From a virus: a stretch of DNA of 54,042 nucleotides. This document shows positions 22,676 to 22,820 of the stretch, in pieces; position 1 is the stretch's first letter, and every line of letters begins with the position of its first letter. The stretch lies in IMG/VR virus record IMGVR_UViG_2757320460_000001, positions 1 through 54,042 of that record; one strand, written 5' to 3'. A program made the position numbers and the translations under genes. The notes below the pieces were generated by a model. That model was not told the origin of the DNA. It did not search any database and saw only the letters and a program-made list of their open reading frames with translations.

Positions 22676-22820
22676 GGTTAAAGTACACTTTAGTTTAAAG
22701 GTATAGTAGAACTAGTATCAACGCCCATCTTACTAAAGGGAGGTTAAAGTACACTTTAGTTTAAAGGTATAGTAGAACGTTATTTCAAAATCAATATTCC
22801 CCTTTACAGTTAGAATATTC
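22676..22820 (+). CRISPR. mini-CRISPR array: 2 perfect 37-nt repeats, 2 spacers of 29 nt, possible degenerate third repeat
   Basis: GGTTAAAGTACACTTTAGTTTAAAGGTATAGTAGAAC at 22676..22712 and 22742..22778. Spacers at 22713..22741 and 22779..22807. The sequence at 22808 matches 8/13 of the repeat 5' end in exact 66-nt phase. Both spacers match phage structural genes. Confidence 0.85.

Follow-up and report, generated by a model that had tools for sequence, protein, structure and literature searches.

We examined a 54,042-nucleotide stretch of viral DNA (IMG/VR record IMGVR_UViG_2757320460_000001, positions 1 to 54,042; hereafter the window) that carries, among its virion morphogenesis genes, a compact cassette of the type V CRISPR class: a gene for a 442-amino-acid Cas12f effector, a region for a putative scaffold RNA, and a mini-array with two spacers. 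By its gene content and its relatives, the window is a circular, siphovirus-like phage-plasmid of ~54 kb from Clostridium perfringens rather than an integrated prophage. Spacer 2 of the array matches a gene of this same element at 27 of 29 positions, and a preliminary description of the DNA had pointed to potential self-targeting. The explanation that we consider probable is that spacer 2 is a working Cas12f guide aimed at sibling elements, and that the carrier’s own copy of the target is spared mainly by loss of its protospacer-adjacent motif (PAM).

Spacer 2 matches a gene of its own element

The mini-array and the corresponding sites elsewhere in the window are listed here, with related loci designated by L numbers.

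22676..22712 (+): CRISPR repeat 1, 37 nucleotides (nt)
22713..22741 (+): spacer 1, with perfect protospacers, flanked by GCCA, in the tape-measure genes of L015, L032 and L039
22742..22778 (+): CRISPR repeat 2, 37 nt, same as repeat 1
22779..22807 (+): spacer 2, the terminal guide of the mini-array, kept in L009, L027 and L028
22808..22856 (+): degenerate terminal repeat remnant and intrinsic terminator (stem 22821-22844, followed by a T-run), homologous to sibling array ends
19905..19933 (-): near-match to spacer 2 on the element itself, within the DUF6751 gene (19635-20042)
19934..19936 (-): resident PAM position for spacer 2, 5′-CTA on the protospacer strand
26060..26088 (-): counterpart of the spacer 1 target in the element's own tape-measure gene, with five mismatches (positions 2, 8, 17, 20 and 26) and the GCCA flank kept

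Spacer 2 (GTTATTTCAAAATCAATATTCCCCTTTAC; + strand) aligns to the - strand of 19905-19933 with 27/29 identities. The mismatches fall at spacer positions 20 and 21, leaving nt 1-19 identical to the resident site without interruption, and so a protospacer with 19 contiguous PAM-proximal matches, including the seed, resides on the same replicon as its guide. None of 100 dinucleotide-preserving shuffles found a match at three or fewer mismatches. The preliminary description was correct in its alignment coordinates, its mismatch positions and the length of uninterrupted identity, as well as in its translation of the two versions (VKGDIDFEIT for the resident gene and VKGNIDFEIT for the spacer). It had also identified the right target open reading frame (ORF), 19635-20042. 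Its name for that ORF, ‘minor-capsid-like’, is imprecise: the product belongs to Pfam family DUF6751 (phrog_3366), and its gene is flanked by a head-tail adaptor gene and by the Minor_capsid_2 gene, which is the next ORF (20048-20401).

The two 37-nt repeats are identical and are spaced by 66 nt (GGTTAAAGTACACTTTAGTTTAAAGGTATAGTAGAAC), with no further copy in the window. Spacer 1 has the same length as spacer 2 (29 nt), and a different spacer in the corresponding array unit of L017, which is bounded by repeats on both sides, is 30 nt long. It had been proposed that the self match continues for another 7 nt (22808-22814, 5/7 identical) and that the terminal spacer is accordingly longer. However, window positions 22802-22856 are homologous to the terminal repeat and terminator of sibling arrays. 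Because the 49 nt past spacer 2 correspond in this way to the siblings’ degenerate last repeat and terminator, 22808-22814 is not spacer. A longer terminal spacer was thus rejected on the basis of array-end homology, the 29- and 30-nt spacers, and a 5/7 match whose probability of arising by chance is ~0.03 in such AT-rich DNA (our own binomial estimate). These bases also lie outside the 20-bp R-loop that has been reported in the literature for Cas12f orthologues. The terminator begins 13 nt past spacer 2 on the + strand. Scanning the window against Rfam and for tRNAs gave no match, and a search of IMG/VR with the 3′ half of the repeat returned four chance matches in coding DNA and no arrays.

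Protospacers of the cassette family share a 5′ flank

The PAM was approached by taking arrays from 30 related loci and mapping each spacer against all fetched sequences. Eleven distinct spacers of the cassette family have protospacers in related elements, and the flanks of these at positions -3 to -1 read CCA (2), TCT (1) or TCA (8). The CCA flanks belong to both spacers of the window, the TCT flank to a guide from the first scaffold-array unit of sibling cassettes (unit 1), and the TCA flanks to eight spacers from a second unit (unit 2) that is described below. A C is present at -2 in 11/11 cases (P ~3e-10 given 13.8% C in the genome), and all 11 conform to 5′-YCW (P ~3e-14, trinucleotide frequency 5.9%). 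No conserved pattern is evident in the 3′ flanks. These data indicate 5′-YCW as a candidate PAM, with CCA for both spacers of the window element. The conserved 5′ flank also fixes the direction of array transcription as the + strand and indicates a 5′ PAM, which to our knowledge is the arrangement in all DNA-cutting type V systems. Effectors of the V-U3 group of Cas12f proteins are reported to cut double-stranded DNA in a manner that depends on a 5′ T- or C-rich PAM, and the group usually lacks adaptation genes (PMC7229846).

The resident allele has an altered flank

The flank of the resident spacer 2 site reads CTA, whereas the same position reads CCA in 17 related loci. The change is due to A19935 on the + strand, which replaces the G of the relatives and converts a glycine codon (GGT or GGA) to a serine codon (AGT). 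With C at -2 in every mapped spacer of the family (11/11), the CTA flank beside the self protospacer would not be a functional PAM. The affected glycine, part of an FEITG motif, is kept in most of the 52 listed DUF6751 homologues (from Clostridium, Terrisporobacter and others). Among these, serine occurs in the two closest DUF6751 clusters alone, and it is therefore the derived state of a conserved residue.

The distribution of the serine allele was followed by aligning, for 36 loci, the region that spans DUF6751 and Minor_capsid_2. Five or more local haplotypes carry the allele, as do 6/6 elements of the lineage with spacer 2. It is confined to haplotypes that keep the spacer 2 seed (12/26, versus 0/10 for diverged haplotypes; Fisher test, 0.015) and to elements that carry the cassette at the capsid site (12/25 versus 0/11; Fisher test, 0.006). 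The self copies of other spacers in the family present a different picture, as they keep the PAM and have three to five mismatches that include seed positions, as evident for the resident copy of the spacer 1 target at 26060-26088. A self copy in L042-44 has an altered flank, AGCA, yet the C at -2 is kept. Of all the self copies, that of spacer 2 alone has an intact seed, and it alone has T at -2.

Taken together, the flank change, the conserved glycine, the distribution of the serine allele and the state of the other self copies make PAM loss most likely the main reason why the carrier tolerates spacer 2. Lack of a PAM had been listed among the possible routes of escape in the preliminary description, and the comparison of CTA in the resident with CCA in its relatives favors this route. 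The self-targeting that had been raised is not supported by the same comparison, given the C at -2 in all mapped protospacers, and autoimmunity of the carrier seems unlikely.

A different basis for tolerance is conceivable: the PAM at the resident site might not matter, or might be permissive, and the carrier would owe its protection to the two PAM-distal mismatches, since the effector would need pairing through positions 20 and 21. These mismatches are real, and position 20 would be the last base pair of a 20-bp R-loop. However, the same two mismatches are present in 14 sampled relatives that have a CCA flank, and the best target of spacer 2 (see below) is itself mismatched at position 21. 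Type V effectors usually tolerate a single PAM-distal mismatch, which also counts against protection of this kind. Moreover, a non-synonymous change at a conserved glycine, limited to seed-matching haplotypes, would be left unexplained. We therefore regard this alternative as unlikely.

The best targets lie in related phage-plasmids

The best target found for spacer 2 is a 28/29 site in two PLSDB plasmids that lack the cassette, pCPCPLi3-1_3 and pCPCPI103K-3_3 (NZ_CP075920.1 and NZ_CP075991.1; L047 and L048), which are identical C. perfringens phage-plasmids of 50,987 bp. The site reads TTTGACCA and then GTTATTTCAAAATCAATATTTCCCTTTAC, with a CCA flank and with positions 1-20 identical to spacer 2. 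Its sole mismatch, at position 21, is synonymous (GGA versus GGG), such that the encoded peptide, VKGNIDFEITG, is that of the asparagine allele. With an R-loop of 20 bp in Cas12f orthologues, the site amounts in effect to a full match. Plasmid pCPCPLi3-1_3 is among the closest PLSDB relatives of the ParM-containing maintenance half of the window (94% identity), which makes it a direct competitor. Two sibling guides match it perfectly as well, and spacer 1 matches it with three mismatches. A homologue in a related phage had been suggested as the source of spacer 2, and these plasmids bear this out, as they combine the 28/29 site with the predicted asparagine allele and the CCA flank.

The preliminary description had taken the lack of a perfect site in any related phage as grounds for its refutation. 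This nearly, though not strictly, came about: no site at 29/29 was found in any collection, and the 28/29 sites have full identity over positions 1-20. Exact spacer 2 has no match in IMG/VR. A degenerate scan for the target alleles found seven matches in metagenome contigs, of which one was unrelated and the six related ones each combined the CT allele with a CCA flank; the same scan gave none in species-representative genomes and none in IMG/VR. BLAST of concatenated spacers against INPHARED returned only the 27/29 sites of phages vB_CpeS_BG3P and LPCPA58. A divergent homologue with the asparagine allele, P0130 (L046), was considered as the source and was ruled out by its four mismatches.

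Spacer 1 matches L015, L032 and L039 at 29/29, and two of these (L015 and L039) carry a Cas12f cassette of their own. The two INPHARED phages, which are of the therapeutic type, have CCA flanks beside their 27/29 spacer 2 sites and also contain one-mismatch sites for a sibling guide. Phage vB_CpeS-1181 has a perfect site for a sibling guide and a spacer 2 site with seven mismatches. This pattern of matches is best read as reciprocal warfare among closely related phage-plasmids and phages, in which near-matches to self would be a by-product because the target genes are homologous. In the tape-measure gene of the window, a TTCA-flanked site (27288-27317, - strand) matches a spacer found in 16 sibling loci with two mismatches (positions 9 and 18), and on account of this site the window element is a plausible target of its relatives in turn.

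Several points weigh against the view that spacer 2 is aimed at siblings and that PAM loss protects the carrier. No 29/29 spacer 2 site was found in IMG/VR, JGI/ENA metagenome contigs, species-representative genomes, INPHARED, PLSDB or the fetched loci. The serine allele is also present in six cassette carriers that lack spacer 2 and in 0/11 genomes that lack the cassette. Simple escape from spacer 2 does not predict this distribution, whereas co-conversion would produce the restriction to carriers. The Fisher values overstate the support, because the carrier loci are related and are not independent samples. With regard to the PAM, only two spacers, both with CCA, belong to the exact effector of the window. 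The other nine come from siblings whose Cas12f proteins are ~84-87% identical, and 8/9 of these are read from a second type of scaffold and repeat. AsCas12f, the closest solved homologue, uses a T-rich PAM. PAM preference thus varies within the clade, and it is from sequence comparison that we infer CTA to be non-permissive.

The cassette encodes an intact type V-F1 effector

The cassette spans ~20402-22871, where it sits between the Minor_capsid_2 and tail-completion genes. Besides the array, it contains the following parts.

20435..20659 (+): left end of the cassette, with a promoter-like site (20435-20464) and a small helix-turn-helix (HTH) repressor-like ORF (probably 20472-20659), from sequence scans
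20814..21170 (+): 118-aa ORF, present in every cassette sampled at the capsid insertion site
21186..22514 (+): cas12f, 442 aa, type V-F1 (formerly V-U3), with a TTG start after the ribosome-binding site AAAGGTGG
22530..22675 (+; 5′ end approximate): scaffold resembling a trans-activating CRISPR RNA (tracrRNA), with stems GGTTG/CAGCC, GGTGAG/CTCAC and ACGC/GCGT

The Cas12f ORF contains the Pfam domains Cas12f1-like_TNB and OrfB_IS605, and along its entire length it aligns with AsCas12f structures (8j12, 8j1j, 8j3r, 7wju and 8dzj; E 1.7e-73, with query residues 18-443 covered). The motifs GIDLG, QMEDL and NADINA, the last conforming to NAD(I/Y)NA, align with those of AsCas12f and represent an intact tri-split RuvC domain (D, E, D). 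The zinc-finger cysteines (CSKCG and CIICG) are present and likewise aligned. PADLOC models for Cas12u3 (1.7e-114, residues 6-440) and Cas12f (2.2e-113) both match over the full length, and the NCBIfam match is guided_TnpB. The earlier recognition of a Cas12f-type effector beside the spacers is thus borne out by family, structure and PADLOC matches alike, and on the sequence criteria of effector, array and 5′ flank the locus belongs to type V-F1 (V-U3).

The scaffold region of ~145 nt lies between cas12f and the array. Its stems recur in seven variants from relatives, with some compensatory changes; across the relatives the scaffold measures 130-190 nt and has three conserved stems, two of which show compensatory changes in their pairs, and the single-sequence fold z-score is only -1.8. 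A candidate anti-repeat, CTATAACCTT, is located at 22640-22649 and can pair with the repeat's AAGGTATAG. In the second repeat type of the siblings, the candidate anti-repeat is altered to match, and pairs TTAAATACAA with TTGTATTTAA (unit 1 versus unit 2). At the left end of the cassette, the promoter-like site overlaps a perfect palindrome, GCATACCAAAA(N9)TTTTGGTATGC, immediately upstream of the HTH gene. The 118-aa ORF has no family match in Pfam, PHROGs, PADLOC or NCBIfam and is absent from cassettes at a second insertion site after a Mu_F-like gene; a role in regulation, as an accessory factor or as an anti-CRISPR is conceivable.

None of the cassettes contains adaptation genes (no cas1, cas2 or cas4), and the repeat has no occurrence in 185,579 species-representative genomes, such that neither a chromosomal parent array nor a trans-acting adaptation module is identified there. 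These features, together with an array of only two repeats and no complete third, would fit an inert relic in which the cassette is silent, or in which spacer 2 is never matured for want of a following repeat. We consider this improbable. The cas12f ORF is intact in dozens of elements, and promoter-like, operator-like and terminator elements are all present. The arrays of near-identical cassettes differ: L012, L013, L019, L030, L042 and L045 share identical Cas12f proteins and scaffolds but have different spacers, which shows spacer turnover. Isolates of differing origin retain spacer 2, which is conserved in the window, L009 and L027. In L028, where it follows a single repeat, it is the sole guide. 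In the guide architecture of type V-F systems the spacer is at the 3′ end. Because Cas12f guides end in the spacer, a downstream repeat is unnecessary for the CRISPR RNA (crRNA) made from spacer 2.

A proposed mechanism of interelement interference

The anatomy, the homologies, the protospacer matches, the flank statistics and the allele distribution are observed. In the mechanism that we infer from them, the guides would be expressed, processed and used for cleavage with the PAM specificity outlined above, to the fitness benefit of the carrier. Transcription from the cassette promoter would cover the HTH gene, the 118-aa ORF and cas12f, and + strand transcription of scaffold and array would run up to the terminator, with each crRNA composed of the 3′ end of a repeat followed by a spacer. 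Because the scaffold is contiguous with repeat 1, crRNA 1 could act in cis as a natural single guide. In contrast, crRNA 2 would pair with the scaffold in trans, except in L028, where spacer 2 directly follows the only repeat and could function in cis. Cas12f is a dimer in solved homologues. The effector would bind YCW-flanked targets in incoming or co-resident relatives and cut their double-stranded DNA. Spacer 2 would be directed at the asparagine allele of the DUF6751 head gene and spacer 1 at the tape-measure gene, both of siblings, and in this manner the cassette might exclude or destroy relatives that enter the same cell. The resident DUF6751 gene would be spared because CTA is not recognized (CCA to CTA through A19935, with glycine replaced by serine), and position 20, with which the R-loop would end, may add to the protection through its mismatch.

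The near-match to self could instead serve deliberate self-regulation, whereby crRNA 2 binds the resident gene or its mRNA and tunes late expression in the manner of small CRISPR-associated RNAs (scaRNAs) or crRNA-like regulatory RNAs (crlRNAs). The crRNA is complementary to the mRNA of 19635-20042 with 19 contiguous matches, and a guide that acts by binding alone had been raised in the preliminary description. However, the resident site lacks the candidate PAM, and it is located at neither a promoter nor a 5′ untranslated region but ~270 nt into a late structural ORF. The RuvC residues are intact, and better targets exist in rivals. Action on mRNA was considered for both spacers, since each is antisense to its target gene, and was ruled out because the family’s spacers lie on both target strands. 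Cas12f is not known to target RNA. Self-regulation is therefore very improbable, and a guide against siblings remains the interpretation that we favor.

The carrier is related to circular plasmids

The window encodes a ParM-like actin (45577-46485), a serine resolvase (11480-12040) and a D5-type primase-helicase (7115-9373). Its closest annotated relatives are the circular C. perfringens plasmids NZ_CP148631.1 and NZ_CP148608.1, with 97.7% and 97.6% identity, respectively, over the cassette. The circular relatives measure 54,366-54,382 nt, compared with 54,042 nt for the window, and 37 plasmids in PLSDB share its maintenance half. The maintenance genes and the circular plasmid relatives lead us to classify the element as a phage-plasmid, for which self-cleavage would mean destruction of the element.

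The cassette breaks a head-tail morphogenesis operon. Phages vB_CpeS_BG3P and LPCPA58 share 93% identity with the window to the left and right of the cassette; for vB_CpeS-1181 the figure is 89.6%, to the left. In all three phages the two flanking genes overlap and no insert is present. Cas12f proteins that are 82-98% identical occur on many C. perfringens contigs of ~50 kb at this same site, and some occur at the second site after the Mu_F-like gene.

Sibling cassettes contain tandem and fused guide units

In siblings, one cas12f gene is followed by two tandem, diverged units, each with a scaffold and a mini-array, whose repeats read GGTTAAAGTACAC...GTAGAAC and GTTGAACTTTAACATGAGTTGTATTTAAA. 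This layout is seen in L011-L031 (second unit from ~7530), including L017:7330-8130 and L029:9400-10000. The last of these is a 257-kb contig with the same layout and a Cas12f that is 70% identical; it may be a jumbo phage, a guess from gene content. The window has unit 1 and only the tail end of unit 2, a state that a deletion at a shared hexamer, CTTTAC, may have produced. Unit 2 has a variable base, G or T, where the repeat gives way to the part of the spacer that matches, whereas the protospacer has A there.

Many siblings also contain a natural fusion, in which the scaffold is joined directly to the last 14 nt of the repeat (AGGTATAGTAGAAC), followed by a single guide and a T-run. Carriers of the fusion are L011-L016, L019-L026, L030 and L031 (for example L013:7330-7530), and the region is homologous to window 22530-22712. 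The arrangement resembles engineered Cas12f single guide RNAs and the omega-RNAs of TnpB.

The cassette might spread by RNA-guided homing

We tentatively raise a possibility that is compatible with a guide aimed at siblings, namely that the cassette spreads by homing, or gene drive. A cut near the insertion site in a rival would be repaired from the carrier, which would copy the cassette and the linked PAM-loss allele into the rival. This is the same logic as that of TnpB/omega-RNA elements and homing endonucleases. The spacer 2 target is ~470 bp to the left of the cassette and the spacer 1 target is ~3.2 kb to the right. More directly, the fused unit 1 guide TATACTTTCAATAACGGTCATACTCTTTT is a perfect match, with flank TTCT, to the uninterrupted junction between Minor_capsid_2 and the tail-completion gene, which is the empty insertion site. 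This match is found in L003, L032, L033, L038 and L047, all of them cassette-less, in vB_CpeS-1181, and in L039, whose cassette is at the other site. In the cassettes located after the Mu_F-like gene (L017, L039 and L040), the last repeat abuts the flanking DNA, AAAAGGAGTTGTAAAT.ATG, and the matching empty site in L032 and in window 16302-16335 reads CTCA, which contains a TCA PAM, and then that same flank. The cassette thus occupies two different loci, and L040 has both. The restriction of the serine allele to capsid-site carriers on several haplotypes is also what co-conversion would give.

Against homing, spacer 2 itself does not correspond to flanking DNA and does not guide to an empty site. 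A YCW at the junction would arise by chance in ~6% of cases, and so the argument from the flank is weak alone. Phage mosaicism could give the same linkage. Furthermore, six carriers of the serine allele have Cas12f proteins ~85% identical to that of the window, and therefore the allele and the cassette must have been separated by recombination at least once. If homing did occur, these cassettes might be viewed as functionally intermediate between TnpB selfish retention and CRISPR immunity, with the fusion of tracrRNA and crRNA and the single-repeat arrays as steps on the path; we consider this the less probable reading. The second insertion site is empty in the window (16290-16340), and at L017:5560-5700 and 8090-8200 the guide equals the flank, a geometry like that of TnpB.

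Comparison with known systems

With regard to the interpretation that we prefer, a guide against siblings paired with a PAM-escaped self allele, the cassette shares most of its features with Cas12f V-F1/V-U3 systems such as AsCas12f and SpCas12f (Karvelis et al., 2020, PMC7229846). These include a compact effector (442 aa here) with full-length homology, a candidate tracrRNA-encoding region between gene and array, 37-nt repeats, the lack of cas1, cas2 and cas4 in the cassette, a Clostridia lineage and a 5′ PAM that possibly contains C. It differs from them in its location on a phage-plasmid between morphogenesis genes, in an array of two repeats (one in L028), and, among the siblings, in having two tandem scaffold-array units per cas12f and a natural fusion of scaffold to repeat end. 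Unlike the T-rich PAM of AsCas12f, the predicted PAM is YCW. Enrichment of type V-F systems on plasmids has been reported in the literature.

Virus-borne mini-arrays that serve in conflict between viruses (Medvedeva et al., 2019, PMC6858448; reviewed in PMC11656645) similarly contain one or two spacers against close relatives and have a diverged allele of their own. The window’s spacers match related elements in this way (spacer 1 at 29/29 in L015, L032 and L039; spacer 2 at 28/29 in L047 and L048). However, the known mini-arrays borrow the Cas proteins and repeats of the host, whereas the window brings its own effector and scaffold, as evident by cas12f directly upstream of the array and by the absence of the repeat from species-representative genomes. 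Phage-encoded CRISPR systems (Cas12j of huge phages; Cas12r of a Thermus phage, in a preprint) also place an effector and array on a phage with spacers against mobile elements, and V-U/Cas14a-like genes on mobile elements of Clostridium novyi sensu lato (PMC8473940) are a further example of an effector on clostridial mobile elements. Relative to these, the present case is distinguished by its C. perfringens host, the ~50-kb siphovirus-like phage-plasmid family, the minimal locus and the self allele with apparent PAM loss. Literature searches found no description of this C. perfringens phage-plasmid Cas12f system.

The TnpB/omega-RNA systems of IS200/IS605 elements have a related effector and a guide located 3′ of a structured scaffold. 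The cassettes differ in having true direct repeats and exchangeable spacers, and spacer 2 does not correspond to flanking DNA, as its target gene is 2.8 kb upstream. In siblings a TnpB-type geometry is found: the terminal guide equals the flank in L017, L039 and L040, and the unit 1 guide of L011-type loci equals the empty junction. No TnpA-like gene is present among the called cassette genes, and IS200/IS605 ends were not searched for. Tandem units, the natural single-guide fusion and empty-site guides could be the features that set this family apart.

The match that was noted at first is of less interest as autoimmunity than as a way into a tractable, natural phage-plasmid system armed with Cas12f. 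It offers a compact natural case of a mobile element with what appears to be a complete minimal Cas12f weapon against its closest competitors, whose own allele was apparently made safe by one base change at the price of a conserved glycine. Among its outcomes is a C-containing candidate PAM for a 442-aa Cas12f (YCW, with CCA here), along with natural single-guide-like fusions and tandem scaffold-array units that share one effector. Spacer turnover in the lack of adaptation genes makes spacer acquisition by V-U3-type arrays open to study. If homing is true, TnpB-style selfish spread and CRISPR interference would be linked in one set of elements. These cassettes are also relevant to how stable and how compatible with one another C. 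perfringens phage-plasmids are, and to the use of phages as therapy against the species.

Other genes of the element and its relatives

Two observations concern genes outside the cassette. In relatives, a slot of variable content, with the Mu_F-like gene on one side and the DUF4355 scaffold gene on the other, encodes Acb2/Tad1-hairpin, Sequestin and Tad2-like domains (L012:1228-1605, L020:808-1909, L015:1224-1487 and L031:925-1413), which are families of anti-defense signal sponges; the equivalent region of the window, ~16320-17240, contains small ORFs. In the maintenance half of the window, ORF 51781-52509 encodes an adenylate/guanylate cyclase catalytic domain (Pfam Guanylate_cyc, 4.8e-08).

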